A stretch of 64,000 nucleotides of DNA from Parcubacteria group bacterium LiPW_15. GTDB taxonomy: Bacteria; Patescibacteriota; Minisyncoccia; UBA6257; 2-01-FULL-56-20. The stretch is from positions 29,710 through 93,709 of the forward strand of contig VMER01000002.1 of NCBI GenBank assembly GCA_007375645.1, given 5' to 3'. Position numbers and translations under genes: made by a program. Positions 11,218 through 39,152 of this stretch are shown in pieces. Position 1 is the first letter of the stretch; each line of letters opens with the position of its first letter. The notes under the pieces were generated by a model. The model ran no database searches. It was not told the DNA's origin and was given only the letters and a program-made list of their open reading frames with translations.

Positions 11218-11817
11218 TTATTTTTTCTTCGCTGGTGCCTGAAGGGTTGCCAAAAGGTCGCTCACGCGCGTGTCCTGCGGCCAGGACTCAAGAATCGTAT
11301 TCCCAACCTCAATAGTATTTTCGTTGTCCCCCACGGCGCTATAAAGCGTCAAAAGTCCATAAAGGACCGGTGGAAGTTTTGGCCCCATCTCCCTCGCTTT
11401 TTTGTAATAATCCACGGCGGCGTCGTAATCGCCCTGCCGTTTAAAGCGGGTAAGCGTCATCGTATAAAGATTCGCCATGGCGATATAATGCCGCGTGTCC
11501 GGGTATATTTTCGGCTCAATGTAGTTTATGAGCTCTCGCGTCGTGCCCTCAGACATGTCTTGCTGCGAATTGACCACGGAGAGAATATTGCTCGTAAGAT
11601 ATTTCGCGGATTCCTCTCCGCCTACCGGAGAATAAAAGCCAAAGACTTTATCAAAATTGGTTTTAAATTCTTCGATGGTGCGCACGTTGTTAACACCTTG
11701 GGCGGCATCGATATAAGCCTGAGATTTTAGAACGGGCAGGATCGAACCGAACACGAACAAAAAAAGCACGAAGAGGATGCAAAGCGATACGACTCCCAAT
11801 TTAAAGCTACTGTTCAT
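11218..11817 (-). CDS. Membrane-anchored hypothetical protein (N-terminal TM, TPR-like C-terminal region)
   Basis: 199 aa. Hydrophobic N-terminus. Adjacent to the O-antigen ligase-family gene, in an operon. Confidence 0.4.
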   Translation of the reverse strand: MNSSFKLGVVSLCILFVLFLFVFGSILPVLKSQAYIDAAQGVNNVRTIEEFKTNFDKVFGFYSPVGGEESAKYLTSNILSVVNSQQDMSEGTTRELINYIEPKIYPDTRHYIAMANLYTMTLTRFKRQGDYDAAVDYYKKAREMGPKLPPVLYGLLTLYSAVGDNENTIEVGNTILESWPQDTRVSDLLATLQAPAKKK

Positions 11818-22934: not shown

Positions 22935-25900
22935 TTAGCCCTTCCTGAGTCCCAGCCAGGCTTCCGCTCCGTCGAACTTGGTCGCTATTTCCGCGTCGAA
23001 TTTACCGCTCTTCTTGTATTCGATTCCTTTGGCGCCAACCTCCATTTTTATTTTTGCTTCGCTGTTTTGAGCCGCAAGTTCCATGTCGGCGGGGAGCGCG
23101 AGCATCAAAAATACTTTGTCTTTCGGCGAAAGTTTGGCGCTCTGCCTGAGTTCTTGGACGGCGCGCATCACTTCGCGGACCAATCCCTCTTCCTTGAGCT
23201 CGGCAGTAATTTCTTTGTCCAATTCCACTTCGCCCTCGATTCCTTTTTTAGACGCAACCTCTTTTACGTTCACTTCGTCGCGGATAATATCCAAAATTTC
23301 TTTGTCTTTTATTATCTTCGCGGAAGATTCTTTTATCCAGAGAGTTTTCAAGGGTTGGCGAACTTTTATTCCCGCGGCGGCCCTGGCAGCGAGACCGAGA
23401 CTCGAAACCTTGCGCGCCTCTTTCATTTGCGCGAGAAGCGATTCACTTTTTATTTCCGCGATCTTCGGCCAATCCGCGAGATGCACGGATTCTTTCTTTT
23501 TACCGGCAAAAGACAAAAGCTCCAAATACATCGCTTCGCTCATGAACGGCATAAAGGGAGCGGCGAGCTTTTGGAGATTCAGGAGGGCAAAATAGAGGGT
23601 ATCCGAAGCGGCGGCAAAGTCCTTTTTATCTTCCGCTTTTTGGAAGCGGCGCCTGGAGCGGCGGATATACCAGCGGGAAAGATCGTCCGTAAATTCCTCC
23701 AGCGCCAAAGCCGCGTTTCTCACATCGTATTTTTCCAAAGACTCGGTAACGATCTTCGCCGCCTCCGAAAGCCGCGCGCTTATCCAGCGATCCAAAATAT
23801 TTTTAGAAACCCCAGGCTTCGGCGAAGGCTTCTTTCCGTAGGTGCGGAAAAATACCAAAGAGTTGAATGCCAGCATGTGGAATTTCCTGTAGCTCTTCAA
23901 TATCTCCAGCTCGTCAAAATTCTTCGGCTCTCCCGCCGGATTGACGGTGTAGAAATACCAGCGGACCGCGTCTACCCCGTATTTCTCTATCATATCCCAG
24001 GGGCTTACCACGTTCCCTATATGCTTGCTCATCTTTTGCCCGTTCTTGTCGTGAATGAGGCCGAGCGATATCACGTTTTTGAAAGGCTCTTTATATCCCA
24101 AAAGGGTCGCCAAAGCCAAAAGCGTGTAGAACCAGCCGCGGGTCTGGTCCATCGCCTCGCAGATATAGTCCGCGGGATAATTTATTTTATTAATAAGCGA
24201 AAGCTCTTTGGCCCCGGGAATTGTCCCCTTCTTCATTTGCTTGAACGGAAAATGTTCTTCGGCCAGCGGCATCGCGCCGGAATCCAACCACACATCCGCG
24301 ACCTCCTTCACCCTTTTCATTTCCTCTCCGCAGGCCGGGCAGGAAACCGCGATAGAATCCACATAGGGGCGGTGCATATCCAGTTCTCCGAATTCATTCA
24401 TCGGTAAGTTGGGAACTTTTACTTTCCGAACCTCGCCGATCTTTATATAGTGCTCGCTCGCGAATTTTTCCCTCGGCAAAAGCGAAAGGGTAGATTCCAA
24501 TATCCACAAAGGGTCGCCGTGGCTTACGACCACAATTCTTTTCCCACGATATTTGGTGTTTATTTTTTTGGCAAAATCAAAAGTGCGCTTGATAACGTCG
24601 GAAAGCGTCTCTCCTCCCGGCGCGGACTTCACAAACCGCTCCATGGGATTCTTAAAGAACTTTCTGTAGTCCCTTACCTTGCGCCAATTAAAAGATCCCG
24701 CGTTAAGTTCCACGAGCCGCTCATCAACGATTATCTTCGCTCCGGTGGTTTTTTTGATTATTTCCGCGAGATCCATACAGCGCGCGTAAGGCGAGGAGTA
24801 AATGATATCTATCTTTTCTTTGACGAGCTTCGCGGCGATCTTTTCGCCGTCCTTAATTCCTTTTTTGGTGAGATGCGATACATGCTTGCCGCTCTCTTCT
24901 CCCGAGGCGATAACCCCGGTCAAAATATGGTCCGCTTCGGTGTGGCGCACAAAATAAAATTGATTCTTGTGGACATCGTTTGCGCTGAGTTCCGCGCGGC
25001 TTCCGATGGTCTTCATCGCATCGCAATGACTGCAGCGCCAGATCGGCAAAGGCGTACCCCAATAGCGTTCGCGCGAAATTGACCAATCCTTAGCCTCTTT
25101 GAGCCACTCCCCGAACCGGCCCTCTTTAAGATGCGCGGGCTCCCAGTTGATCCCCTCGTTTCTTTCTCGAAGTTCTTTCCGAAGCCGGCTGACCTCAAAG
25201 AACCAGGCTTTCCTCGCGAAATATATGAGTGGGGCATTGCAACGCCAGCAGAACGGATATTCGTGCTCAACTTTTCCGGACAGGTACATTATTCCCCTCT
25301 TTATAAGATCGGCGGAGATATCATTGTCCGCTTCTTTTATAAATTTTCCGGATCCGGGAAGGTCTCCCGTCACACGTCCTTCGCCATCGATAGTCGCGAT
25401 CACTTCCATCTTCGGGTAATGCGCCGCGACCAGCTTGAAATCGTCCTCGCCGAAAGCCGGAGCGATATGCACGAATCCGGTTCCATCCTCGGTAGAGATA
25501 AAATCCGCCGGTAAGATCTTATACATTTCTTTTTTGTCCGCGCCGGGCACATCAAAGATCGGCTCATAAGAAAGGCCTAAAAGTTTGGCGCCGGATATTT
25601 TTTCCACCGCTTCTATTTCCGGAGTTGAACCGTCCTCCGACTTGGGAGTCGGCGGCGCGGAATAGGACCACAAATAATCCTGCCCAACTTTATATTTTGT
25701 ATAGGTGAGCTTCGCGTCCGCTGCAATGAACATGTTGGATGGCAGGGTCCACGGGGTTGTCGTCCAAACCAAAATATATTCGTTGTTATTCTTCGAACCC
25801 GGCCGTTTCAAGCGAAATTTAATATAGACGGAAGGATCCGGAACTTTTTTATAGACGTCCGGCTGGGCAAGTTCGTGGCTTGAAAGCGCAGTCTGACAGC

Positions 25901-26462
25901 GAGGACAATAAGGCACGATTCTCCGGCTCTCTTTCAAAAATCCGCGATCGGAAATGACTTTGAATATCCACCATAAACTTTCGATGTAGTCGTTATCGTA
26001 GGTGATATAGGGGTCTTCCATGCTGAGCCAGTAGCCCATCCGGTCGGTAAGGCGCTCCCACTCATCTTTATACTTCCAAACCGATTCCTTGGCTTTCTGG
26101 TTAAAAAGATCGATGCCGAATTTCTCGATATCCCGCTTGGTTTTGAGACCCAGTTCCTTTTCCACGCCCACCTCCACCGGAAGCCCGTGCGTGTCCCAGC
26201 CGGCTTTGCGGGGCACATAAAAACCTCGCATCGTTTTATAGCGCAAAATAATATCTTTAAAAGCCCGCGCGAGTACGTGGTGGATGCCCGGACGGCCGTT
26301 AGCGGTCGGCGGACCCTCGTAAAATACAAACTCCTTCCGCCCCTTGCGCTTGGCCAAACTTTTTTTGAAAGTCTTGTCGGCCTTCCAGTACTCCAGAACC
26401 TTCTCTTCGGTTTTGGGTAGGCTAAAATCTCCTTTAAAGTCCAACATTAGTTTTTTTATCAT
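22935..26462 (-). CDS. ileS: Isoleucine--tRNA ligase (type-2 / eukaryote-like) carrying an inserted histidine-phosphatase domain
   Basis: KDIILRYKTMRGFYVPRKAGWDTHGLPVE, WxISRERYWGTPLPIW, KMSKH and DVWLDSG all match the IleRS type-2 pattern. Residues about 505-700 (nt about 24389-24974) match the His_Phos_1 pattern: VRHTEADH .. LT..G .. DIIYSSPYARC .. VVVSHGDP. Start is uncertain, at 26462 or 26447. Confidence 0.8.
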   Translation of the reverse strand: MIKKLMLDFKGDFSLPKTEEKVLEYWKADKTFKKSLAKRKGRKEFVFYEGPPTANGRPGIHHVLARAFKDIILRYKTMRGFYVPRKAGWDTHGLPVEVGVEKELGLKTKRDIEKFGIDLFNQKAKESVWKYKDEWERLTDRMGYWLSMEDPYITYDNDYIESLWWIFKVISDRGFLKESRRIVPYCPRCQTALSSHELAQPDVYKKVPDPSVYIKFRLKRPGSKNNNEYILVWTTTPWTLPSNMFIAADAKLTYTKYKVGQDYLWSYSAPPTPKSEDGSTPEIEAVEKISGAKLLGLSYEPIFDVPGADKKEMYKILPADFISTEDGTGFVHIAPAFGEDDFKLVAAHYPKMEVIATIDGEGRVTGDLPGSGKFIKEADNDISADLIKRGIMYLSGKVEHEYPFCWRCNAPLIYFARKAWFFEVSRLRKELRERNEGINWEPAHLKEGRFGEWLKEAKDWSISRERYWGTPLPIWRCSHCDAMKTIGSRAELSANDVHKNQFYFVRHTEADHILTGVIASGEESGKHVSHLTKKGIKDGEKIAAKLVKEKIDIIYSSPYARCMDLAEIIKKTTGAKIIVDERLVELNAGSFNWRKVRDYRKFFKNPMERFVKSAPGGETLSDVIKRTFDFAKKINTKYRGKRIVVVSHGDPLWILESTLSLLPREKFASEHYIKIGEVRKVKVPNLPMNEFGELDMHRPYVDSIAVSCPACGEEMKRVKEVADVWLDSGAMPLAEEHFPFKQMKKGTIPGAKELSLINKINYPADYICEAMDQTRGWFYTLLALATLLGYKEPFKNVISLGLIHDKNGQKMSKHIGNVVSPWDMIEKYGVDAVRWYFYTVNPAGEPKNFDELEILKSYRKFHMLAFNSLVFFRTYGKKPSPKPGVSKNILDRWISARLSEAAKIVTESLEKYDVRNAALALEEFTDDLSRWYIRRSRRRFQKAEDKKDFAAASDTLYFALLNLQKLAAPFMPFMSEAMYLELLSFAGKKKESVHLADWPKIAEIKSESLLAQMKEARKVSSLGLAARAAAGIKVRQPLKTLWIKESSAKIIKDKEILDIIRDEVNVKEVASKKGIEGEVELDKEITAELKEEGLVREVMRAVQELRQSAKLSPKDKVFLMLALPADMELAAQNSEAKIKMEVGAKGIEYKKSGKFDAEIATKFDGAEAWLGLRKG

Positions 26463-26522
26463 ATAGCAAAGTTTTGCCCTTCGCAATTTCGCGGGGTTTT
26501 ATATATTACTCAAGTTCCCGCA

Positions 26523-28453: not shown

Positions 28454-28924
28454 ATGCCGGCCGCAAATAACCGTATCATTAAACGTATGGGCGCTTTAGC
28501 GGAGAACAGAAAAGCTAGGTTCGATTATGAAATATTGGAAACCCTTGAATCCGGGGTGGAGCTTTTTGGTTTTGAAGTAAAGTCTGTTCGCGCCGGAAGA
28601 ATGGAGCTTCCCGGAAGCTATGTGATAATCCGCGGCGGAGAAGCCTATTTGGTGAATGCGAAGATTCCCGCCTATCAACCGAAAAACGCGCCCGAGGGTT
28701 ACGATCCGACCCGCGCCCGCCGGCTTCTTCTCCACAAAGAACAGATAAGCCGTCTCACGGGATTTTTGGAAACCAACCACTACCTTATCCCCCTCTCGAC
28801 TCATTCCAAAAAAGGATTGATAAAACTGGAACTCGGTCTGGCGCGCAAACGAAAGAAATCCGATAAACGTGAAGTTATAAAAAAACGCGAAGTCCAAAAA
28901 AAGATCCGCGCGCGCGAAGACTAA
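28454..28924 (+). CDS. smpB: SsrA-binding protein SmpB
   Basis: ENRKARFDYEILE .. FGFEVKSVRAG .. LLLHKEQI .. LIPLS.HSKKGLIKLELGLARKRKKSDKR. Confidence 0.85.
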   Translation: MPAANNRIIKRMGALAENRKARFDYEILETLESGVELFGFEVKSVRAGRMELPGSYVIIRGGEAYLVNAKIPAYQPKNAPEGYDPTRARRLLLHKEQISRLTGFLETNHYLIPLSTHSKKGLIKLELGLARKRKKSDKREVIKKREVQKKIRARED

Positions 28925-28948
28925 AAAAGGGCGGCTTCTCAGCCGCCC
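28921..28948 (-). terminator. Intrinsic terminator for the minus-strand ORFan. GGGCGGC-ttctca-GCCGCCC with an A-tract on plus, which is a T-tract on minus.
   Basis: 7-bp GC stem at 28929-28948, with aaaaaa at 28923-28928. Confidence 0.5.
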
Positions 28949-28966
28949 CGGTCCATTCCCGACTTA

Positions 28967-29593
28967 CTACCCGGGTCCCTCGGGCATGTTGATTCTCGCT
29001 CGCATCCCCCAGATCTCGTCGAAGGCTCGCTGCGAGTCCTCCGCCCTCGCCTTCTTCAGGTTTCTATCCAGAGCGGAGAGATCGCAGATCTTCTGGAAAA
29101 TACCTGCCCAAAAGATAGGCGGCGTGCCCATCTTGTCGGCCAGCGCCGCGATGTTCGGCTCCGCCACCGGGACGAACGAAGCTCTCGCCGGATACCAACG
29201 GCAAATGGATGTCTCGGAGTAGGTGAGAGCGTTGGAACAGGTTAGGAGGGCGAACCCTCCGGCCTTCAGAAGAAAGAGACACCACTCTTCCTTGTGGTCG
29301 CCTTTGTGGTCGACGAAAACTGGGGTCACCTCGGCGCAGAGAGAGTCGTAGCCGAGGCCGGATCCGAAGACCATCTTTTCGGGGTGAGGTCCGCCTCCGA
29401 CCCAACCCATTTTCTTGCTGACCACTCCGAAAAACTCCTGAAATCCCGAAGCATTCTTGAGCGGACCGAGCATCTCCAGCGCCTCCTGGATTATTTGCGC
29501 CCAGGTATTGCTATCGATCTCGTCGTACCAGTAGGGAGCATCCCTTCCCGCAATCACGGAGATTGGCGATGGTTGTCTCTTGGGCGTACCCAT
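28967..29593 (-). CDS. Hypothetical protein (GC-rich ORFan A)
   Basis: 208 aa. SD aggagg lies 7 nt before the ATG. GC-rich codon usage unlike the flanking genes. No recognisable motif. Confidence 0.5.
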   Translation of the reverse strand: MGTPKRQPSPISVIAGRDAPYWYDEIDSNTWAQIIQEALEMLGPLKNASGFQEFFGVVSKKMGWVGGGPHPEKMVFGSGLGYDSLCAEVTPVFVDHKGDHKEEWCLFLLKAGGFALLTCSNALTYSETSICRWYPARASFVPVAEPNIAALADKMGTPPIFWAGIFQKICDLSALDRNLKKARAEDSQRAFDEIWGMRARINMPEGPG

Positions 29594-29742
29594 ATGAGAC
29601 CTCCTATTGTGAAGTACCGGCGTACCGGTCTCAGCCTGTTATATCACGCGCCACTTAAACCATCAACACCATCCGCCAAGAAATATTGACTCCGAGTCCA
29701 AGCGGTCATAACATCTTCCTTAGAACACGAAAGGAGATCCCG

Positions 29743-30030
29743 ATGGCAGACGTCTTCGACTCCGTCGACCCCATAAGCCACAACGAGCCAGAGATCATCC
29801 AACTGCTCATACAGCGCAACTCCGCAGTGAGCGATGAGGAAAGGGCAACACTCAAGAAGAGCTACCTGCGCTTGCGCCCAGAGATCGCTAAGGACGAAAA
29901 GGCGCCGGCGTCTCTCGTCCCGGCGCTCGACACGATCTTCGACGTCATACCCGAAGATCTGCCCCCGAAGTCTCTCTGGGAACGAATCGGTGGATGGATC
30001 GAGCGAACCCTTTTCAATTTCGGTCCGTAA
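29743..30030 (+). CDS. Hypothetical protein (GC-rich ORFan B)
   Basis: 95 aa. SD aaaggag lies 6 nt before ATG 29743. A promoter-like TTGACT-17-TAACAT lies upstream. An intrinsic terminator follows. Confidence 0.5.
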   Translation: MADVFDSVDPISHNEPEIIQLLIQRNSAVSDEERATLKKSYLRLRPEIAKDEKAPASLVPALDTIFDVIPEDLPPKSLWERIGGWIERTLFNFGP

Positions 30031-30040
30031 CCGGATCCGA

Positions 30041-30070
30041 GCCGCAGGACCCCCCCTGCGGCCTTTTATT
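30041..30070 (+). terminator. Intrinsic terminator. GCCGCAGG-accccccc-CTGCGGC plus T-tract.
   Basis: 8-bp stem, then cttttatt. Confidence 0.6.
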
Positions 30071-30097
30071 GCAATTTTTCTAAATTCGTGCTATAAT
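30069..30097 (+). promoter_or_regulatory. Promoter of ssrA. TTGCAA, 17-nt spacer, TATAAT.
   Basis: ttgcaa at 30069-30074 and tataat at 30092-30097, about 25 nt before the mature tmRNA 5' end. Confidence 0.5.
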
Positions 30098-30121
30098 GTG
30101 GTTGCCTTGAAAATTGAATAT

Positions 30122-30444
30122 GGGGATGCCGGGCTTCGATAATGATGTCCCGCGTGCCTGCGAACCGAGCGTGACCTCGCTAAACTCACAAAAACTTTAA
30201 CTGCCAACTTTAACGTTGCAGCTCCGTCCCGCGCTTTAGCTTACGCTTAAGACCTGACGGCGCCGATTGCTCTGGGTCTCTTAGAGTAAATCCGGTGTTA
30301 TATAAGGAGACTGGCAAACAGCTTTTGATTCCGAACTGTTTGTAAGAAATTGGAATCGTTTCTGCCTGATCTAATCAGACTACGTTCGTAGATGGCTCGT
30401 GTTCTTCATCTTTACACGGCGGTTCGACTCCGCCCATCTCCACC
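30122..30444 (+). ncRNA. ssrA: tmRNA (SsrA), 323 nt, CCA encoded
   Basis: 5' GGGGATGCCGGGCTTCGA pairs with 3' ..CATCTCC-ACCA to give a 7-bp acceptor with a G3:U70 wobble, the alanine identity element. T-arm GGCGGTTCGACTCCGCC. Internal tag ORF 30203-30250 gives GCC AAC TTT AAC GTT GCA GCT CCG TCC CGC GCT TTA GCT TAC GCT TAA = ANFNVAAPSRALAYA*. Confidence 0.85.
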
Positions 30445-30451
30445 AAATAAA

Positions 30452-30479
30452 AAATCCGGGCCTTGCGCCTGGGTTTTTT
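30452..30479 (+). terminator. Intrinsic terminator of ssrA
   Basis: tccgggc-cttgc-gcctggg (7 bp including 2 G:U pairs) followed by T6. Confidence 0.5.
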
Positions 30480-30606
30480 GTTTGTGGTTATATTTGCGCG
30501 AAGTCGAACGGAGGGGTGGGTCGGAGGGGACGCAATATCGTCCCCTCCGTGGAGGAGATTATTCAGAACCGTGGGTTCGGAAAAGCGAGTGTCAGCGAGC
30601 GCGTGA

Positions 30607-30662
30607 GGTTCTCCGCCCATCCCCCGCCGTAAAGAAACAAAAAATCCCTGTTCGGATTTTTA
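30607..30662 (+). repeat. Degenerate direct repeat of the tmRNA 3' end plus its terminator (att-like remnant)
   Basis: ggttcTCCGCCCATCcccc followed by aaaaaatccctgttcggattttt, compared with the genuine ggttcgacTCCGCCCATCtccacca followed by aaaaaatccgggccttgcgcctgggtttttt, about 185 nt upstream. Confidence 0.45.
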
Positions 30663-30764
30663 TGCTTGATCGACTTTTGACCATATCTCCAGGCTAAGCC
30701 CAAAGGGTTAGGTCGCGTATTTAGTTGTAGATATATTATAACTCTGAATTGACCAGAAAAAAAG

Positions 30765-33700
30765 TTAGTCCGCTTGATCTTCGGCACCTACGGATGCACT
30801 GATTGCTATGCTCGGGGCGTCTAATGCCAGTGCGTCCATTGAAGAGGTAAAGGCATCTAATACCGCATAGACCTTCGGGAGATCCTCTGAGTAAGTGGCG
30901 GCGTAGTTATCTGTTATAACGACCTTCCCTTGTTCGGGCAAATTTAACGCTTTTATTGCGACGCCATTGGCTTTCCAGTAGTCGGCGAGTCTTTTTTTGT
31001 CAATTACTTTAGTAAATTCGCCGATATTGGCAACAAATGCGCGGCCATCAACGGATGCAAATGTGCTCGCAAAATTTATCAATAGATAATCCAAAAAGAT
31101 CTGATAGTTCTGCATATTCGTGTTGGGGTTAAAACATGTTTCGAAGAGGTAATCATTCATATCCTTTCGGATACCATGAGAGTCTCCGCTCCCGCTCTGA
31201 TCGTAATAACCACAACCGATGCCCGAACTAATGATATCGTTGCCAAGTTGATAGGTAATAAACGATTTCGCCCTATTTTTTAGCTTTGCAACTTTATCGT
31301 CAACCTCCTCCTTTGTAATTTTCCCGTCTGTCATTGCGGCATCAACAAACGAGCGGAACTCACTTGCCAAATCACCCAGAGAAAGACTGTCGATTACCTC
31401 AAATAAGTTTATTTTGGGATCTATAAATCGTGTTTTAAAAATTCTAAAAACTTTCTGGGACATCGCGCGCATCTCTTCTATGACGATTGCTCGAACGACC
31501 CCTTCAGTGGGAGCCGTGGGATTATTGTGCTTTGAGAGGGCGCGCTGCAAATTAAATATATCTCCTCCCCGGTCCGCGCTGCAGAAAAGACGGAAGGCAA
31601 GCAAATCATATAAACCCAACACGCCCCTAGACTCTGTCGAGAGCAATTCAATGACACCAACCCCAGCGTGCCTCCCTTCGCCGAAAATCCATTCTGCAAT
31701 TTCAGATATATTTTCCTCCGTATTGGCACCGCGGCGTCCATCTGGGTCTGCCCACCCAGCCTTATCTAACAGCTGTATAAGAAAATACAACAAGTCGTCT
31801 CTGAGCCCGAGCCCCAAGTCCTTGCTGGTGAACAAAGAGTAATTTGCTATATTTTGCAGAAGATACAAAATCAACGAACCGCCAACCCCTGCGCCTGCTT
31901 CCGAGATGCTATTAACGACAACTCTCCAAAGCTGTTCGTGACTTGATTCGCTCTTGGAATAAGAAAATTCTTCGCCACCGAGAACATCTTCGATCTTTTT
32001 TCCTGCAAAAATCTCATTTTTATAATTTAGATAGAATCTATATTGATTTCGTTTTTGCGGCTTGGAAAGTTTCACGATGAGATTGAGATACTCTTCCAGA
32101 TTATGCCCGCCAGTCCATCCGCCCTCGCCGTTGAAACAAGCGTATGAACTCTTTATCTCTTGGGGGACGCTGTCTATCAGGGGAAAATTATCTTTTCTGA
32201 ACCAGTCTTCGGAAACTTTAAGCCTTTGAGATGCATCAAACACCTTGTCAAGTAAAAATCGCGGATTCTCGGTTAATGTTTCGATGTATTTTGTATATTC
32301 AGTGGAATTTTTATATACATTTTTTGAATCCCCGCTCCCCGTTGGGTCTTCCGGGTAGCCAGGAGAGTATGGGTTTGGCAGCGAAAAAAATCCACTTTTG
32401 CCGTAAGTTTCGGAATCATATATTTTGCGAAATATATTTGGATAATTAATATAGATCAGAAGGAGGTGAATTAAATCATGTTTATCAAAATCACTGTTAT
32501 CAAAATCGGTTTTTTCAAGTTCGAACAGCAAAACGGTATTAAGAAGTCTTTTTAGCTTCCTTACGTCGCCGATGAAAGGCAAATATCGGTGATAGTCCTT
32601 CGATTTATATATATCTATAAGGCCACCGATAGCCTTAGAAACAAGCACCGGATCGGCCTGAGAATTTCCGGCCAAGGCCTTAGCCAGATTCTGCGAAACA
32701 TAGTTGGACAAAGTGGCGCTATCAAGGAATATACTAGTTTTTACGTTAATAAATTTCTCAAGAAATTCTGTAACTTTTTCGACACCCGGCTTCTCTCTTT
32801 CCAGCGCACTTATATTGTCCGTGTCATAGCAAAGAACGTATGAAATGTTTGGGAGGGTGAAACTTTTTTTAATGACGAAAAGAACATCCTTAATAGCGGA
32901 GAAGCTAAGCCTATCTAGATCGTCAATAATGATTATTACCTTCTTTTTAGAATCAGATAGCGCAATCTCCAAATCGTCGAAGGCATCGTCAACCGTGTAT
33001 GTCCCCGGGAAGAAATCCAACTTAAGCCCCGACCACGAAAACCCCGCTCTTCCCTTTATTAGCCTGGAATACCTTGATATAAGAGGTCTTATTTCTGGTA
33101 TAAACTCGTTTTTCTGTATGGTCCGAACAAGGCCGTCAACAAACTTTTCTAGTAGGTTTGACCGCCCCTCGTATCTCAGCGGGTTAAAGCGATAAACTAC
33201 CGCCCCCTTTTTATATTCATCGTCTTTTTCCCAATATCCCCTACACAAATTTACGAAAGATGATTTTCCTATGCCCCAAGGGGCGTCTATCCCAAACACG
33301 ATACTATCCGAAGACCCACGATTAAAAACTTTTTCCGCAAACCGTCTTGCGGCGTCCGAAAAGCCCAGCAAATCATCCCCTTCCGGTTTCAATTCGGCAT
33401 CGCTTATAAAAAATGAATGCTCGTTTATTTTTATTCTTTTTTTAAATCTACCCAACGCTGCTTTTAATAGAAAAATTAGGCAAAGAATAAAAGGCAAAGA
33501 AAGCAATGCGAAAATTTGACCAATCGTAAGCGCAGACGCCAGCACTGCATATTGGCGCGAGAAGAACCCTCCAAAGGAAAAATCTACTAAAATTCCCGCG
33601 GATGCAGCAATCGCGATATCCCACCTAGCACTTCTTATTAGCCTAACAAAATCCAAGAAAAATCCTCTGCCGGCTAAATATCCAACAACCAATATCGCGC

Positions 33701-33938
33701 AGGACACAACGATGCTGGAGGCTTCTAGTTCATAGCTCCTGGAGATTATATAGGCGCAAATTTTTAGAGCGACGGGAACAGACAGATACACTACCTCAGA
33801 ACACAAAACCCCAACCCCAAAGGCTTTTATCAGGGCTGTCAGATTTGCCATCCCTATTTTAAAATCTGGAGTTTTTGGCATATTCGCACCTCCAGCATAA
33901 TGCAGCCCCGCCAGAAAGCAATAATTCGTAGCCATCAC
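30765..33938 (-). CDS. KAP-family P-loop NTPase with an N-terminal 4-TM domain (1057 aa)
   Basis: Walker A GIDAPWGIGKSSF and Walker B IIIIDDLDRL, i.e. KAP signatures G.WG.GKS and hhhhDDLDR. About 170 aa of N-terminal TM helices. Long helical C-terminal region. Confidence 0.8.
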   Translation of the reverse strand: MMATNYCFLAGLHYAGGANMPKTPDFKIGMANLTALIKAFGVGVLCSEVVYLSVPVALKICAYIISRSYELEASSIVVSCAILVVGYLAGRGFFLDFVRLIRSARWDIAIAASAGILVDFSFGGFFSRQYAVLASALTIGQIFALLSLPFILCLIFLLKAALGRFKKRIKINEHSFFISDAELKPEGDDLLGFSDAARRFAEKVFNRGSSDSIVFGIDAPWGIGKSSFVNLCRGYWEKDDEYKKGAVVYRFNPLRYEGRSNLLEKFVDGLVRTIQKNEFIPEIRPLISRYSRLIKGRAGFSWSGLKLDFFPGTYTVDDAFDDLEIALSDSKKKVIIIIDDLDRLSFSAIKDVLFVIKKSFTLPNISYVLCYDTDNISALEREKPGVEKVTEFLEKFINVKTSIFLDSATLSNYVSQNLAKALAGNSQADPVLVSKAIGGLIDIYKSKDYHRYLPFIGDVRKLKRLLNTVLLFELEKTDFDNSDFDKHDLIHLLLIYINYPNIFRKIYDSETYGKSGFFSLPNPYSPGYPEDPTGSGDSKNVYKNSTEYTKYIETLTENPRFLLDKVFDASQRLKVSEDWFRKDNFPLIDSVPQEIKSSYACFNGEGGWTGGHNLEEYLNLIVKLSKPQKRNQYRFYLNYKNEIFAGKKIEDVLGGEEFSYSKSESSHEQLWRVVVNSISEAGAGVGGSLILYLLQNIANYSLFTSKDLGLGLRDDLLYFLIQLLDKAGWADPDGRRGANTEENISEIAEWIFGEGRHAGVGVIELLSTESRGVLGLYDLLAFRLFCSADRGGDIFNLQRALSKHNNPTAPTEGVVRAIVIEEMRAMSQKVFRIFKTRFIDPKINLFEVIDSLSLGDLASEFRSFVDAAMTDGKITKEEVDDKVAKLKNRAKSFITYQLGNDIISSGIGCGYYDQSGSGDSHGIRKDMNDYLFETCFNPNTNMQNYQIFLDYLLINFASTFASVDGRAFVANIGEFTKVIDKKRLADYWKANGVAIKALNLPEQGKVVITDNYAATYSEDLPKVYAVLDAFTSSMDALALDAPSIAISASVGAEDQAD

Positions 33939-34246
33939 TCCCTCGGCGATGAATTAGTTTAACTCCTTTGTTGCGGTTGGACGTGCAAAACAGACAAACC
34001 ATTTATATGATTTTCGGAGGATCGGGCTTAATTGATAGTGTTCCCAGAACCGAGAAAGGCAGGTTTTAAACGGTTCACCGTTTCGCCTACCACGCCCGCA
34101 TAACAAAATACTCACCCCTGCGGTGGGTGTTTTGTTATGTGGCACATATTGACGCGGAGTCGAACATAAGTTTGACTAATCTCCGCCGCGGAATATCCTG
34201 TAGTCAGCTCGCCACATATGCCAAATAGTTAGGAAAGGGGTGGCTT

Positions 34247-34432
34247 ATGCCTCTCTCCCTTCAGGAGCGTTACAACCGATATCGACTCGCCGGAGGCGAT
34301 CACGCGGACTTCGTCCTCGAACACGATCTGATAACGGATGACGAAACGGCGGCAAGCTTGAGGCGCAACTTCGCCGATGCGCATCCCGAACGTTCCTTGC
34401 CGAAACGAACCAACCGAGACCGGTCCGAATAA
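34247..34432 (+). CDS. Hypothetical small protein (GC-rich ORFan C)
   Basis: 61 aa. Followed 10 nt later by a second small ORF carrying a strong SD. Confidence 0.35.
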   Translation: MPLSLQERYNRYRLAGGDHADFVLEHDLITDDETAASLRRNFADAHPERSLPKRTNRDRSE

Positions 34433-34442
34433 GGAGGCTCGA

Positions 34443-34658
34443 ATGCCCGGAACAATGCACCACCACCCGGTGTCGGGTGTCCGCCTCTTCGGCACCCGAC
34501 TCCATCCCTACGACAAGCTTCTGCCAACCGATGTTTATGCGGCGCGCACCGGAGAATGGGAACAGTTGCGGGAATCCGGAACCCTGCTCTCGGAAAGCGT
34601 TTGCGCATACATCGTGCGCCCCGAAGGGGCGACCCAGGAAACCGCGCTCGCCGCGTGA
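34443..34658 (+). CDS. Hypothetical small protein (GC-rich ORFan D)
   Basis: 71 aa. SD aaggagg lies 6 nt before ATG 34443. A T-tract follows. Confidence 0.4.
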   Translation: MPGTMHHHPVSGVRLFGTRLHPYDKLLPTDVYAARTGEWEQLRESGTLLSESVCAYIVRPEGATQETALAA

Positions 34659-34768
34659 GCGACAACAATGGATAGTGTCCGCCAGAGCCAAAGGCAATCG
34701 TCCGCCCGAAATTCATTCGGTCGAGACAGGCCCGAGGCTCTTTTTTTATATTTGCTACAATAAACCAT

Positions 34769-35536
34769 ATGAACCCAACATCAATTTTAGCCCTGCTTCA
34801 GCTTGCTCTGTCTCTCTTGGTCAGTGCCCAAACGAATCCGGCCACAACCGTAGCGCAGAAAAATCTGGCTCTTTCTTTTGCGAATCAAGCCGTTTCTATT
34901 TCGGCAAATTATATTTCCCAAATAAATAATTCGGGGGTTGTCATTGCCCCGGCGACACCGACCGCAACCACCACTCCGATCGTAAATCCTGCTCCGGCGA
35001 CAAGCACGCCCGACGAAATCGCTCCGGTTACAAAATCACTTTTCGCGACCCCGCTCGGTGCGGCGACAAACCGAATCAAGACAAATGTTGATGACCTCGC
35101 GATCCTGAATTTGTCCGCGTCGCCAGCGGGAGGTATTTCCCTTACGACGCTCAGAGTCACCCTCTCCGGAAGCCTCGCCTCATCTTCCTTCGGCAACGCC
35201 GATGTTAAGTTGCTCAACTCCTCAAACGTTGCAATTGGAACCCTCGCGCCCGTTACGTGCAATACCGGTCCAAGTTGCGTTTTTGCCTGGTCCGATTTCG
35301 GGTCGAACGGAATAATCTCCGCCGGCGGAACTCTCATGCTCAAATTAAGGATCGACTCTCTTACAAACACGGCTTCGGCAGGCGCGGGCGTTTCGGCGAT
35401 ACTCTCGGCAGTCATTCAATCCGCCGACGATCTCACCTATAACACCGCGGTAGACGGTTCCGGCGCCACGGTTGGCCTGCCTGCGACGGCAGTTCCCTTG
35501 GTTTTGAATTCTGTTTCTTATTCGCCGGGAACATAG
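34769..35536 (+). CDS. Secreted Ser/Thr/Ala-rich protein (signal peptide), hypothetical surface protein
   Basis: N-terminal MNPTSILALLQLALSLLVSAQT signal-like segment, then a low-complexity T/A/S-rich sequence. Confidence 0.5.
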   Translation: MNPTSILALLQLALSLLVSAQTNPATTVAQKNLALSFANQAVSISANYISQINNSGVVIAPATPTATTTPIVNPAPATSTPDEIAPVTKSLFATPLGAATNRIKTNVDDLAILNLSASPAGGISLTTLRVTLSGSLASSSFGNADVKLLNSSNVAIGTLAPVTCNTGPSCVFAWSDFGSNGIISAGGTLMLKLRIDSLTNTASAGAGVSAILSAVIQSADDLTYNTAVDGSGATVGLPATAVPLVLNSVSYSPGT

Positions 35537-35616: not shown

Positions 35617-36183
35617 CTAAACAGTTTGTATCTCGTTATTTGATTCCTGCGCTGCGATCGGTGCTACCGCCGACACAATTTCGGAATCCTTAATTTCCAC
35701 GCGGTCCTTCTTTCTGAACAGAGAAACGGCGACAAGGATAAGCAACAAAATCGGAAGCAAGACGAAAAGCAGTTTCGGGCTCAAAACGCTTGAAGCGCTC
35801 GCCGTCTCTTTGTCGGACGACACAACGCTTGCACCGGAACCATCAAGAAAACCCACCGGCTGCGCCGCCTGCTGACTCTCGATCGGGATAGGCGAATTGA
35901 CCGGCGAAGCGGAAAGTTCGGCGCTCACGGAAACAAGAACTTGTTTTATGCCGCCCAAAGTCACGCTTACCGTTGCCGGATTCTCGATCGGGCTACCCGC
36001 TCCGTTTAACCTGGCTTGAATATCGTTCAAGACGCTATCCAAAACATTCAGGGTCTGTCCGAGAAGCGCTCTGGTCGGTTGGTCCACTCTTTCTATGGAA
36101 ACGGCAGCGTGCGCCGAAGGCGCAAACATTATTGCCATAAATCCAACTAGACCGATAACGCAAAAAAGTAATTTTTTGATCAT
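35617..36183 (-). CDS. Secreted or membrane-anchored hypothetical protein (N-terminal signal, C-terminal TM plus basic tail)
   Basis: 188 aa. AHA-like cleavage site. C-terminal LLFVLLPILLLILVAVSLFRKKDR. Confidence 0.45.
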   Translation of the reverse strand: MIKKLLFCVIGLVGFMAIMFAPSAHAAVSIERVDQPTRALLGQTLNVLDSVLNDIQARLNGAGSPIENPATVSVTLGGIKQVLVSVSAELSASPVNSPIPIESQQAAQPVGFLDGSGASVVSSDKETASASSVLSPKLLFVLLPILLLILVAVSLFRKKDRVEIKDSEIVSAVAPIAAQESNNEIQTV

Positions 36184-36478
36184 TGAAATAATAAATTGAT
36201 TTGTTATCGGCCTTTCTAAAGAAACCTACTTAAAAGTGCTGCGAGCCAAACAAACAACTGGCCTTAATATGCCACCAGCCGCCTAAAACATCAACCCCGT
36301 CACCAGATCAAGCGCAATTGGCTTGCTTGCCCGACCAAACAATAAAACTACTTTTAAAACGAGCCCCTCCGCAGGAGCAAAGATAGCTATAATTTCCGCC
36401 AATCAAAAGGGCTAGCGCTTGGCTCGGTGCGGGGTCAACCGCTACTCCACTCCCCGGCCATAGGGTATAATCCGACCA

Positions 36479-37027
36479 ATGGGTCTTTTTTATACCGGAA
36501 AAGGAGATAAAGGAGTCAGCGAAGTTTGGGACGGAAAAAAACTGGATAAGACTTCCGTGGAGTTGGTGGCCTTGGGCGACTTGGATGAATTAAATAGTCT
36601 TTTGGGGTTGGTGCGAAGCCGCACCCCGGATAAAAATAACAAGAAAGTTTTGCTCTCCGTCCAGGATGAGCTTTTTACCATCCAGGCGAATATTTATCTT
36701 CTGGCTATCGGCAGGCTTGAGAAAGCCCCTGAACTCGGCGAAGAAAAAGTTAGAATGGTGGAACGCATAATAGACGCATTGGAAGAGTTTGTCGGCCCGG
36801 AGCGTGGCTTTGTCATCTCCGGCGAAGATCCGGAAGAGGCTTGGCTGGATTTTGCCCGCGCCGTTGCAAGGCGCGCGGAGCGCAGCGCGATAGAACTTAA
36901 TAAAAAAATGGCGTTGCCCGAAAATGTTTTGGCTTATTTAAATCGGCTTTCGAGCTTGCTTTTCGCCATGGGCAGAGCTTCCGCGAAAAAACGCGGCAAA
37001 AAAGAAAAGGGGCCATCATATAAATAG
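36479..37027 (+). CDS. ATP:cob(I)alamin adenosyltransferase, PduO type
   Basis: YTGKGDKGVSEV N-terminal motif (TGDxG-type) and the helical-bundle pattern of PduO/MMAB. TATAAT at 36466-36471 lies upstream. Confidence 0.7.
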   Translation: MGLFYTGKGDKGVSEVWDGKKLDKTSVELVALGDLDELNSLLGLVRSRTPDKNNKKVLLSVQDELFTIQANIYLLAIGRLEKAPELGEEKVRMVERIIDALEEFVGPERGFVISGEDPEEAWLDFARAVARRAERSAIELNKKMALPENVLAYLNRLSSLLFAMGRASAKKRGKKEKGPSYK

Positions 37028-37051: not shown

Positions 37052-38485
37052 TCAGGGAATGCGGGAAAGGGCGATCGGATCTCTTGCGCGACTGCCTCTC
37101 AGAAGCGCGAGCAGATCTTCGAAGCGGCGACAGCCGGTATCGCTTCTCGCGTTGGCAAGAGCGATGCGGAAATTGTCCTCTCCGGAATCGCGGGTGTTCG
37201 GCGGAAGATTCCACCTCTCCTTGGCCACGATCAGCGTCTGAAGCGCGCGAGATTCGACATCGGCCAAGCTGATCTCGGCATCACCATAGATGCGCCGCGA
37301 GAGGCTCGCAACGCTGATGTCCGGAACCACTCCCTCGTTTCTGTCGTAAACCATGCACCGGAAAAAGATCTCTGCCTTCGGCGGAAGCACCTGTAGACTT
37401 CCGAGGTTCGGCTTGGCCGGCGATTTGTCCTCCGGCGGCGGAATCTCTGCCTTCTTCTTGGCTCCAAGGGTCGAGACTGCCTTAGCTGTCTTCCTGTTGG
37501 TCTTCTTGGGCTTGAGGGAAAGCTCGGTCCGCTCCGCAGCCTTCTCGGGCTCGGGAAGCGTGGCGCGCGCAGGCGGTTTCTTGGCCTCTTGTTTTTCGAG
37601 CTCCGAATTCTCGGGGGCGTCCCAACCCTTTTGAAGCGAGATGACCGAATGAAGTTCCTTGGCCAGAACCGAAAGACTCTCGAGTCTTGCGAGAAGATTC
37701 TTTCTCGAGGACTCGGTCAGGGCGCGGCAGGCCTCTTTCTGATCGCCCGAAGGAAGAGCGAGAAACGCCTTAGCGAGAGGTATGGCTGTGTTAGCCCTCC
37801 AGCCATAGAAAGCCAGAATCTTCCCCAAGATCCCGGCGGGTGATTTCGGAAGCTTGCTGACCGTGAGATTGATGCCATGAGCGGTTTGTCCCAGTTCTCG
37901 CGCCCCAACCGTGAACGCATCGCGGCCGGCGGCGAGATCATGAGCCATGCGGATGAGCCTGCCCTTCTCCCCTCGGTACTGCGCGAGAGAGAGCGCACCG
38001 ACCTGCGGAAGGCTCCCCGTCCGAACCATCTCCTGAATCTCCTCGGGGAGCTCCAAGAGCTTTAACCGGTTCAGAATGGTGAGCTCGGCTCGTCCGGTCA
38101 GTCGCCCGATTGAAGCGATCGTTTTTCCCCGCCCTCGAAGCTTTTTCAAGTACCTGGCTTCGTCAATCGGGTTGAGATCTTTGCGGCAGCAATTTTCCAC
38201 GAGCGAAGCAATTTCCGGATCCGATTCGCCGCTCAGGATGAGACACTCGATGAATTCCCATCCAAGAATTCGGGCGGCCCTTATGCGCCTTTCTCCGGCG
38301 ACAAGGTCGAAATAGCCTTCCGCCTCCGACGGCTTGACCGTCGGCGGCTGGATCAGCCCCTCCTCCTCGATGGAAGCGGCCAGCTCCCTTGTTTCGTCAT
38401 CATCGAACGTTTGTCTCGGCTGATTGGGATTCAGCAGAATGTGATCGAGTCGAACCTCAACCAATTCTTTTCGAGCATCTCTCAT
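37052..38485 (-). CDS. ParB/Srx-domain (ParB-like nuclease) protein with a Pro/Lys/Ala-rich C-terminal region. No partner parA.
   Basis: LDHILLNPNQPRQ .. LAASIEEEGLIQP .. LVAGERRIRAARILG, the ParB N-terminal domain. Start at internal Met 38485 with SD aggaaaggag. GC-rich. Confidence 0.65.
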   Translation of the reverse strand: MRDARKELVEVRLDHILLNPNQPRQTFDDDETRELAASIEEEGLIQPPTVKPSEAEGYFDLVAGERRIRAARILGWEFIECLILSGESDPEIASLVENCCRKDLNPIDEARYLKKLRGRGKTIASIGRLTGRAELTILNRLKLLELPEEIQEMVRTGSLPQVGALSLAQYRGEKGRLIRMAHDLAAGRDAFTVGARELGQTAHGINLTVSKLPKSPAGILGKILAFYGWRANTAIPLAKAFLALPSGDQKEACRALTESSRKNLLARLESLSVLAKELHSVISLQKGWDAPENSELEKQEAKKPPARATLPEPEKAAERTELSLKPKKTNRKTAKAVSTLGAKKKAEIPPPEDKSPAKPNLGSLQVLPPKAEIFFRCMVYDRNEGVVPDISVASLSRRIYGDAEISLADVESRALQTLIVAKERWNLPPNTRDSGEDNFRIALANARSDTGCRRFEDLLALLRGSRARDPIALSRIP

Positions 38486-38645
38486 CTTCGAGATCTCCTT
38501 TCCTAATATCGAATTGAAGAACCAAGAACATTCTATGCGCCGCCCGCCAGATGTAAAGCCCTTTGACACTTCCCCCCACTCCGCTAATATACTAAGGTAG
38601 CAATCGAAAGCTGTTCGGCCTCCGGGCCCAAGCATATAACCCGCC

Positions 38646-39152
38646 ATCCAAAATCCGAGGATAAACAACCAAATTACCGCGCCCGAACTTCGGGTGATAG
38701 ATGCCGAGGGCAAGAACCTCGGAGTTTTGGCGCTTGGTGACGCGCTGGCCCTCGTGCCGCAATCTTCCGGAATGGACCTCATCGAAATCTCCCCGAATGC
38801 TAAGCCGCCGGTCGCAAGGATAATGAGTTATGACAAGTTCCGCTATGAACAGGAAAAGCTCGAGAAAAAGCAGCGCCAGTCCCAGAAGCAAACCGATCTG
38901 AAAGTTGTGCAGATCAGCGCCCGGGCAGCGGAAAACGATCTTCAAGTGAAACTTAAGCGACTTGAGGAGTTTTTGGGCGAAGGCCACCAGGTAATGATAA
39001 ATATGCGTTTGAAGGGCAGGGAAAAAGCCAACAAATCCTGGGCGGAACAAAAACTTAAAGATTTCATGAATATGGTCAAAACCGAATATAAGGTAATAGC
39101 CCCGCCTCGCTACGCCGGCAACGGTTTCTCGGCGCAGATCGTGAAGAAATAA
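38646..39152 (+). CDS. infC: Translation initiation factor IF-3, probably with a non-AUG start
   Basis: RINNQITAPELRVIDAEGKNLGV .. DLIEISPNAKPPVARIMSYDKFRYEQEK matches IF-3. The in-frame region upstream of GTG 38694 is open back to the stop at 38637-38639 and encodes conserved N-terminal residues. Candidate start ATC 38646 (or ATA 38661), as in autoregulated infC. Confidence 0.75.
   Translation: MQNPRINNQITAPELRVIDAEGKNLGVLALGDALALVPQSSGMDLIEISPNAKPPVARIMSYDKFRYEQEKLEKKQRQSQKQTDLKVVQISARAAENDLQVKLKRLEEFLGEGHQVMINMRLKGREKANKSWAEQKLKDFMNMVKTEYKVIAPPRYAGNGFSAQIVKK

Follow-up and report, generated by a model that had tools for sequence, protein, structure and literature searches.

The 64-kb stretch of DNA analyzed here (hereafter the window, to which all coordinates refer unless another contig is named) is part of a 101.5-kb ENA contig from a metagenome-assembled genome of the Parcubacteria (Paceibacterota). 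Immediately downstream of the gene for transfer-messenger RNA (tmRNA, ssrA), it contains a cassette of ~3.65 kb with low guanine-plus-cytosine (GC) content and a single gene, which encodes a P-loop nucleoside triphosphatase (NTPase) of the KAP family. The cassette is located between the tmRNA and the ancestral terminator of ssrA, with the two copies of an imperfect ~70-nt direct repeat at its boundaries. The insertion is apparent from comparison with related genomes; we infer, with moderate confidence, that the cassette is the single-gene remnant of an insertion in the flank of ssrA, within a recombination hotspot, and that it encodes a membrane-anchored anti-phage protein. The KAP protein and the product of open reading frame (ORF) A, which is located between smpB and ssrA, are identical to NCBI proteins labelled “Parcubacteria group bacterium LiPW_15”.

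A single-gene insertion between the tmRNA and its ancestral terminator

The tmRNA gene (30122..30445, plus strand, with the tag ANFNVAAPSRALAYA) is identified by ARAGORN and matches the Rfam family RF00023 with 107 bits. The left copy of the direct repeat (DR-L; 30446..30509, plus strand) consists of the terminator that now serves the tmRNA and a spacer ending in GCGAAGTCGAAC. The right copy (DR-R; 34096..34165, plus strand) lies on the other side of the KAP gene and consists of the displaced ancestral tmRNA terminator hairpin (34096-34142), which matches a terminator-like pattern, and a spacer ending in GCGGAGTCGAAC. The two copies are identical in 50 of the 68 aligned columns (73.5%). A search of the whole window started with 30405-30509 identifies DR-R as the best non-self match on the plus strand (z=9-11), and when 30446-30509 alone is used as the query, none of 5000 shuffles attains the DR-R score. 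The original prediction regarded 34096-34165 as no more than structured hairpins and placed the duplicated ssrA flank at 30607-30662. The hairpins (34096-34142 and 34153-34192) are real (z=-6.3), and an insertion bounded by a duplicated ssrA flank does exist, but the true repeat is formed by 30446-30509 and 34096-34165, the latter repeating, in direct orientation, the sequence downstream of the tmRNA with far greater strength than the segment proposed originally. Directly upstream of DR-R, a block that is collinear with the tmRNA 3' end (34064..34095, plus strand) is a possible decayed copy of that end; its similarity to the body of the tmRNA is marginal, given that 123 of 5000 shuffles and 2% of windows reach the same score (p ~0.02).

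A scan with SmpB yielded 80 related loci, every one of them from Patescibacteria. The nearest relative, L008, is related at the species level (SmpB 90% identical, DNA ~84-86% identical), and SmpB is 82% identical in L097, a Logan contig, and 77% identical in L007. The L097 locus is an empty site: the tmRNA is directly followed by a terminator that is 83% identical (45/54) to DR-R (34096-34153) and 71% identical to DR-L, and the KAP gene is absent. The KAP gene was not found in the 2 kb available downstream of the tmRNA in L007 either, or in any of the 80 smpB loci. The composition of the gene is unusual as well: the six lowest-GC 1-kb segments of the 64 kb all fall within it (0.39-0.43, compared to 0.495 +/- 0.034), and its tetranucleotide usage is the most atypical in the window (z ~3.9 from the window average). 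The view that the KAP gene is foreign is thus borne out by its atypical composition and by the lack of a KAP gene at the corresponding site of L097 and L007. Taken together, the empty site, the repeat and the composition show that a foreign one-gene cassette of ~3.65 kb resides between ssrA and its ancestral terminator.

The att-like copy of the tmRNA 3' end proposed originally (30607..30662, plus strand) fares differently. The segment 30609-30625 weakly resembles, in direct orientation and within 160 nt of ssrA, the sequence from the tmRNA T-loop to its 3' end (GGTTC..TCCGCCCATC). The tmRNA 3' end with its terminator was aligned, with three different scoring schemes, to 30590-30675 and to the window as a whole. 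The score of 30607-30662 falls within the top 0.2-0.7% of same-size windows, but matches that equal or beat it are present elsewhere, e.g., near 40.0, 39.8, 5.7 and 45.8 kb. The similarity is at the noise level and is not significant by itself, given the region scanned. The remaining half of the segment includes a hairpin (30640-30661) followed by a minus-strand T-run, 100 nt beyond the KAP stop codon, and accordingly, this hairpin/A-run half is the terminator of the KAP gene itself.

At permissive thresholds, the tmRNA is the sole real Rfam match between 28.9 and 36.5 kb, the weak ones all scoring below threshold. Among these, a match to the tmRNA_permuted family (30418-30537; 29 bits against the gathering score of 47, E=0.006) extends from the 3' end of the tmRNA into the downstream element and probably corresponds to the tRNA-like end. 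An 81-aa minus-strand ORF antisense to the tmRNA 3' end (30375-30620; an ENA and Logan gene call) is spurious, its “homologs” being other tmRNA genes.

The left end of the cassette carries a conserved structured element of 73 nt (30496..30568), which includes a perfect 10-bp hairpin (30523-30548) that folds as originally described. In L008, this element is 94.5% identical (11578-11650), compared to 84-86% for the DNA of neighboring genes and 90% for the tmRNA gene; it folds with z=-2.8 and -3.6 and has no match in IMG/VR. The L008 contig stops at the element, and Logan contigs of the same population end at 30535 and restart at 30557 (the end of L002); these assembly breaks at or within ~20 nt of the element may reflect population heterogeneity at the junction. 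Both copies of the direct repeat are closed by the motif GCG[G/A]AGTCGAAC (30498-30509 and 34154-34165), the reverse complement of the 12-mer GTTCGACTCCGC from the tmRNA T-arm (30421-30432), and in L008, an exact copy of the motif is located 121 nt after the T-arm. Just beyond each repeat copy lies one member of an inverted pair of 20-mers (30546-30565 and 34173-34192, 17/20 identical). With the anchoring repeat given, the co-location of these end motifs beside its copies is unlikely to be due to chance. The palindromic GCG[G/A]AGTCGAAC elements loosely resemble attC cores, as judged by eye only; IntI is absent.

The KAP NTPase and its family

The KAP gene (30765..33881, minus strand) encodes a protein in which four N-terminal transmembrane (TM) helices precede the NTPase domain and a conserved region of ~550 aa makes up the C-terminal part. 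The gene is real, as originally proposed, but instead of the 1057 aa assigned to it then, the product more likely consists of 1038 aa starting with the ATG at 33881, as indicated by gene callers and alignments with homologs. The domain search upholds the family assignment: the protein matches profile positions 5-288 of 293 of Pfam KAP_NTPase (PF07693), with a score of 134.3 bits where the cut-off is 20 (E=6.8e-39). The Walker A and Walker B motifs are APWGIGKS and IIIIDDLDR, respectively, with G203, G205, K206 and D320-R324 invariant in 42 homologs. Altogether, more than 100 residues are invariant over the full length of the 42 aligned homologs, including those of the Walker A and B motifs and four cysteines in the C-terminal half.

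The four predicted N-terminal TM helices are recovered as hydropathy segments (aa ~28-166 of the 1057-aa ORF) and, in the AlphaFold2 (AF2) model of the 1038-aa form, take a helical conformation within H11-152, with predicted local distance difference test (pLDDT) values of 80-90. Aravind et al. 2004 reportedly described the TM helices of KAP NTPases as inserted within the domain. In the present protein, the stretch from Walker A to Walker B lacks any hydrophobic segment; the TM helices thus precede the NTPase domain instead of interrupting it. Four TM helices outside the P-loop domain have been described for KAP NTPases (PMC13001434).

In the complete AF2 model, which is confident (pLDDT 82), a helical membrane bundle at the N-terminus is followed by the NTPase domain and then by a C-terminal region that is likewise helical. 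A Foldseek search of the PDB with this model retrieves RdrA, a component of RADAR, as the top match (E=9e-6), followed by ORC/Cdc6 and STAND NTPases. Because all these matches are weak (template modeling score, TM-score, of at most 0.23), only the NTPase architecture is recognizable. The PADLOC model of PifA matches the NTPase part with E=1.3e-31. The NCBIfam profile of QatA scores 26.9 bits, compared to a cut-off of 600, and there are no Qat neighbors.

At least 454 homologs of the KAP protein were identified; the best 120 are full-length and 48-62% identical, mostly of ~1000-1050 aa (882-1092), and where the source is named, most come from Patescibacteria. A survey of 71 homolog loci, in which ORFs within 4 kb of the KAP gene were clustered, reveals contexts that vary between genomes and no conserved partner gene; none of the clustered ORFs resembles ORF A, ORF B, p255 or the small GC-rich ORFs of the window. 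The commonest neighbor is a large serine recombinase (9 of the 71 loci), and most of the contexts include neither a recombinase nor a known defense gene. In one further case, an IMG/VR viral contig (L092), a full-length KAP homolog is flanked by a large serine recombinase on one side and a lysogeny module (HTH, ImmA/IrrE) on the other, and in L105, a terminase is encoded near the homolog. Full-length homologs with 32-33% identity are also present on four plasmids of Burkholderia glumae, and on the examined plasmid (H3), two integrases and an AIPR protein are encoded next to the gene. In L087, L090 and L091, the KAP genes are not flanked by repeats of a tRNA 3' end. Given the family membership and the published PifA, RdrA and single-gene TM-KAP defenses, the protein can be predicted to function as an anti-phage or superinfection-exclusion factor that depends on nucleoside triphosphates.

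The variable spacer between smpB and ssrA

The smpB gene (28454..28924, plus strand; 156 aa, Pfam SmpB E=4e-43, with the same protein in two further assemblies) is separated from the tmRNA by 1197 nt. Across 52 relatives from Patescibacteria with a tmRNA detectable downstream of smpB, this gap has a median length of 57 nt and reaches at most 704 nt (in L008). As noted in the original prediction, the two genes are split by a divergent pair of GC-rich ORFs, ORF A and ORF B (GC 0.58 and 0.57 vs 0.495 for the window).

ORF A (28967-29593, minus strand, 208 aa) was described as an ORFan, but strictly it is not one: a single homolog, with 55% identity over 99% of the length, is encoded in the same position next to smpB in L097. 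Scans of Pfam (also at E up to 5), PADLOC, PHROG and NCBIfam yield no match to ORF A, and its AF2 model, which derives from a two-sequence alignment, is unusable (pLDDT 45). Although it evolves fast, ORF A is a real gene. ORF B (29743-30030, plus strand, 95 aa) is indeed an ORFan, with no match among 1.84 billion representative proteins and with empty scans of Pfam (to E 5), PADLOC, PHROGs and NCBIfam. It also has signals of its own: a promoter-like site (29686-29714, plus strand) and, as described originally, a Shine-Dalgarno sequence and a terminator (30041-30062, plus strand), both the promoter-like site and the terminator being pattern matches. The entire ORF B cassette (29644..30074, plus strand, ~431 nt) is absent from L008 and L097, in which this place is taken by 38-48 nt. 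This 431-nt block is a self-contained insertion that ends immediately before the tmRNA promoter (30069-30097, plus strand), which scores highest of all sigma-70-like sites in the region.

The minus-strand cargo gene is preceded by a conserved 38-nt element (29606..29643), a promoter or 5' untranslated region, which is 92% identical in L008 and is also retained in L097; the gene behind it differs in L008. The cargo of the spacer consists of ORF A and ORF B in the window, of the ORF A homolog alone in L097, of a 119-aa ORF and a 47-aa CxxC-rich Zn-ribbon-like ORF in L008 (10485-10994 of that contig), and of an 87-aa GIY-YIG nuclease gene in L007 (10450-10713 of that contig; Pfam E=1e-15). Because the cargo differs in each close relative and the 38-nt element is kept, the split between smpB and ssrA represents a clade-specific variable slot. 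The gap length and the differing cargo also substantiate the description of smpB-ssrA as an accessory hotspot, and the smpB-ssrA-infC neighborhood as a whole is a recombination hotspot in this genus-level clade. Classical ssrA-targeting elements leave the variable smpB-ssrA slot unexplained.

Comparison with known systems

Islands at ssrA in Dehalococcoides occur in tandem and include integrase-less, “cis-mobilizable” ones (PMC3146451). They resemble the locus described here in that foreign DNA of atypical composition is located directly 3' of a single-copy tmRNA gene, with a distal duplicate of the ssrA flank, broken synteny relative to related genomes and variable DNA further downstream. In contrast to the clean 20-bp copy of the ssrA 3' end in those islands, the repeat here is a ~70-nt terminator with a spacer (73.5% identity). 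The present locus also differs in that it has no serine or tyrosine integrase module, its cargo is a single gene, its host belongs to Patescibacteria, and the smpB-ssrA spacer is variable.

Stand-alone proteins that combine TM helices, a KAP NTPase and an uncharacterized C-terminal region (EF_KAP and three others) potently protect Enterococcus against phages, and this defense requires Walker B and the C-terminal region (PMC13552941). The KAP gene of the window is likewise a stand-alone gene, its product is predicted to be membrane-anchored and has canonical Walker A and B motifs as well as a large C-terminal region without a recognizable domain, and genes of both kinds are linked to serine recombinases and mobile DNA. 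However, EF_KAP has two modelled TM helices, one of them inside the NTPase, and a 322-aa tail, whereas the protein described here has four N-terminal TM helices and a ~550-aa tail with invariant cysteines. Furthermore, the recombinases associated with the present family are large rather than small serine recombinases, and the role of the protein is read from sequence.

PifA of the F plasmid, which is responsible for T7 exclusion, is also a KAP NTPase carried by a mobile element. The PADLOC match to PifA covers the NTPase region only, in two stretches, and the C-terminal regions are unrelated. PifA causes abortive infection at the level of the membrane and is reported to lack TM helices (PMC13001434). 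RdrA, the best PDB match, shares the succession of a KAP or STAND-like ATPase and a helical region, but the match has a TM-score of 0.23 with a root-mean-square deviation of ~21 A, and RdrA is a soluble protein that acts together with the deaminase RdrB. Neither RdrB or another deaminase nor a conserved partner is encoded next to the KAP gene here or in the 71 homolog loci. Thus, the ssrA island and the single-gene KAP defense are both known kinds of system, and what is new is a member from an under-studied phylum.

Proposed origin and function, and alternative explanations

An integrative element or prophage would have targeted the 3' flank of ssrA, and the cassette would be its remainder, the element having since lost its recombinase or, alternatively, the cassette having been mobilized in trans. 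The four TM helices would hold the KAP protein at the membrane, with the KAP or STAND-like NTPase acting as a switch and the conserved, cysteine-bearing C-terminal region of ~550 aa as a putative sensor or effector. Several observations weigh against this scenario. As the original prediction stated, no integrase is present: the families Phage_integrase, Resolvase and Recombinase are not represented among the called genes within ~10 kb on either side, and no excisionase or other mobility gene is found in or near the cassette. The repeat signal consists of a terminator and a spacer and thus falls short of demonstrating a classical integration within the tmRNA gene, and a deletion between the repeats in L097 is formally inseparable from an insertion here. 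A general tendency of KAP genes to adjoin tRNA or tmRNA genes was considered and rejected, inasmuch as only 5 of the 71 homologs lie within 1.5 kb of such a gene, which is about the chance level, despite the examples in L087, L090 and L103. On the functional side, there is no KAP match in the INPHARED phage collection, the RdrA match is weak and restricted to the NTPase architecture, and conservation over the full length of the protein (50-62% identity over 1000 aa) also fits a membrane function other than defense; the defense role of this KAP subfamily is plausible but is predicted only from family and context.

Such a different function is part of an alternative under which the KAP protein is a lineage-typical membrane NTPase of Patescibacteria, involved in housekeeping or host interaction (e.g., the assembly of membrane or surface complexes), that happens to be encoded in a variable region. 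The large size of the family, the numerous invariant residues, including the four C-terminal cysteines, the predominance of contexts with neither a recombinase nor a known defense neighbor, and the lack of a conserved partner gene are all compatible with this possibility. Nevertheless, it appears unlikely in view of the patchy distribution of the gene (L097 and L007 lack it at this locus, and none of the 80 smpB loci carries it), its foreign composition, the recurrence of its homologs with large serine recombinases, a viral lysogeny module and Burkholderia plasmids, and the resemblance of the protein to PifA, RdrA and QatA. With respect to the origin of the cassette, some room, albeit limited, should be left for the interpretation of 30607-30662 as attR of an eroded ssrA-integrating element or, in a variant, for a tandem array that consists of ssrA, a remnant (30446-30606), a direct repeat (30607-30625), the KAP gene and a decayed direct repeat (34064-34095) followed by the ancestral terminator. 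The direct tmRNA-like match at 30609-30625, so close to ssrA and near the top of the score distribution, can be cited in its favor, as can the marginal copy at 34064-34095, which is found exactly at the place predicted for attR, upstream of the ancestral terminator, and the tandem islands with 20-bp ssrA repeats known in Dehalococcoides (PMC3146451). These arguments are offset by the equal or better chance matches elsewhere in the window, the loss of significance once the region scanned is taken into account, and the assignment of the “terminator” half to the KAP gene.

The cassette could also have arrived without any mobile element, through a local duplication of the terminator region or through homologous recombination with a related donor in which the genes were already so arranged. 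The absence of an integrase, the nature of the repeat, which is a host-type flank (terminator plus spacer) and not a clean att core, and the 73-nt cassette end that is shared with L008 at 94.5% identity, compatible with exchange among related genomes, are in line with this explanation; yet it leaves unexplained both the origin of the low-GC KAP gene and the linkage of KAP genes elsewhere to serine recombinases, prophage modules and plasmids, and homologous replacement just shifts the original insertion into the donor genome, which makes the scenario quite improbable. Finally, it is conceivable, though we consider it highly speculative, that the 73-nt hairpin element, with the GCG[G/A]AGTCGAAC motif and the inverted 20-mers, is a recombination site that mediates an integrase-less (trans-mobilized or integron-like) exchange of single-gene defense cassettes at the ssrA terminator in Patescibacteria, in which case the spacer between smpB and ssrA, where the conserved 38-nt element would supply a promoter, would offer another slot for such exchange. 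A remnant of an insertion in the ssrA flank that encodes a membrane-anchored anti-phage protein is the reading that we favor.

The region downstream of the cassette

Beyond DR-R, a GC-rich (0.57) segment (34166..34768) includes the remainder of the second hairpin (34153-34192) as well as small ORFs that overlap (34229-34384, minus strand; 34443-34658, plus strand) and are putatively coding at best. The suggestion that these ORFs may be effector or regulator genes finds no support: scans of Pfam, PADLOC, PHROG and NCBIfam yield no family match, nothing similar is present in the fetched loci, and ORFs of this kind do not recur next to the KAP gene in the 71 homolog loci. The next gene, p255 (34769-35536, plus strand), encodes a predicted surface or secreted protein of 255 aa that is Thr/Ala/Ser-rich and has a signal-peptide-like N-terminus. 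It is lineage-specific, with no homolog in L097 and no match in Pfam (to E 5), PADLOC, PHROGs or NCBIfam. The public annotation instead calls an overlapping 168-aa minus-strand ORF (34909-35415); neither of the two has homologs in the fetched loci, and p255 looks like the more plausible gene.

The gene that follows, p188 (35617-36183, minus strand), also encodes a predicted surface or secreted protein, shows only weak sub-threshold matches in family scans and belongs to the shared backbone, with a 44-48% identical homolog in L097. In L097, the tmRNA terminator is followed by the genes for Bax1-I, msrB and msrA, the p188 homolog, the gene for a PduO-type adenosyltransferase (CobAT), a ParB-like gene and infC. 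In L007, other genes and msrB follow the tmRNA; both msrB and msrA are found downstream of the tmRNA in these two relatives, whose MsrB proteins share 88% identity. In the window, the stretch from 34166 to ~35600, i.e., the GC-rich segment and p255, stands in place of the Bax1-I-to-msrA segment of L097. None of the genes for msrA, msrB and Bax1-I is present anywhere in the window and, therefore, they were lost or relocated in this lineage during the remodelling of the locus. The remaining backbone genes are in the same order as in L097: CobAT (36479-37027), the gene for a ParB-like protein with ParB_N and HTH_ParB domains (37052-38635, minus strand, GC 0.57) and infC (38694-39152). In more distant relatives (L012, L017 and L021), infC is located directly 3' of the tmRNA. 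The ParB-like protein is only 28% identical to its positional counterpart in L097, compared to 85-86% for the flanking CobAT and IF3, which suggests that this gene is another fast-evolving or swapped module.

Breaks in the Logan contigs (30535/30557 and 36411-36433) were considered as a sign of a variable segment of 5.9 kb; this candidate was dropped given that the assembly is fragmented throughout. Elsewhere in the window, the isoleucyl-tRNA synthetase gene (22935-26486, minus strand; 4482-8009 in L001; 1175-1183 aa) shows, in the precomputed Pfam list, a His_Phos_1 match between two tRNA-synt_1 matches. A phosphatase-like domain inserted in this enzyme would be unusual.

Implications

Patescibacteria, also known as the Candidate Phyla Radiation (CPR), have tiny genomes with few recognized immune systems, and their mobile elements are poorly known. 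The locus described here provides a clean pair of an insertion and an empty site and indicates that integration at the ssrA flank operates in Patescibacteria too. Of lesser weight, but curious, is the slot with variable cargo that separates smpB from ssrA. The KAP NTPases with four TM helices constitute a large, well-conserved family that is a candidate for a widespread defense or superinfection-exclusion system of the CPR, and the plasmid-encoded homologs in the culturable Burkholderia glumae open an experimental route to this family.

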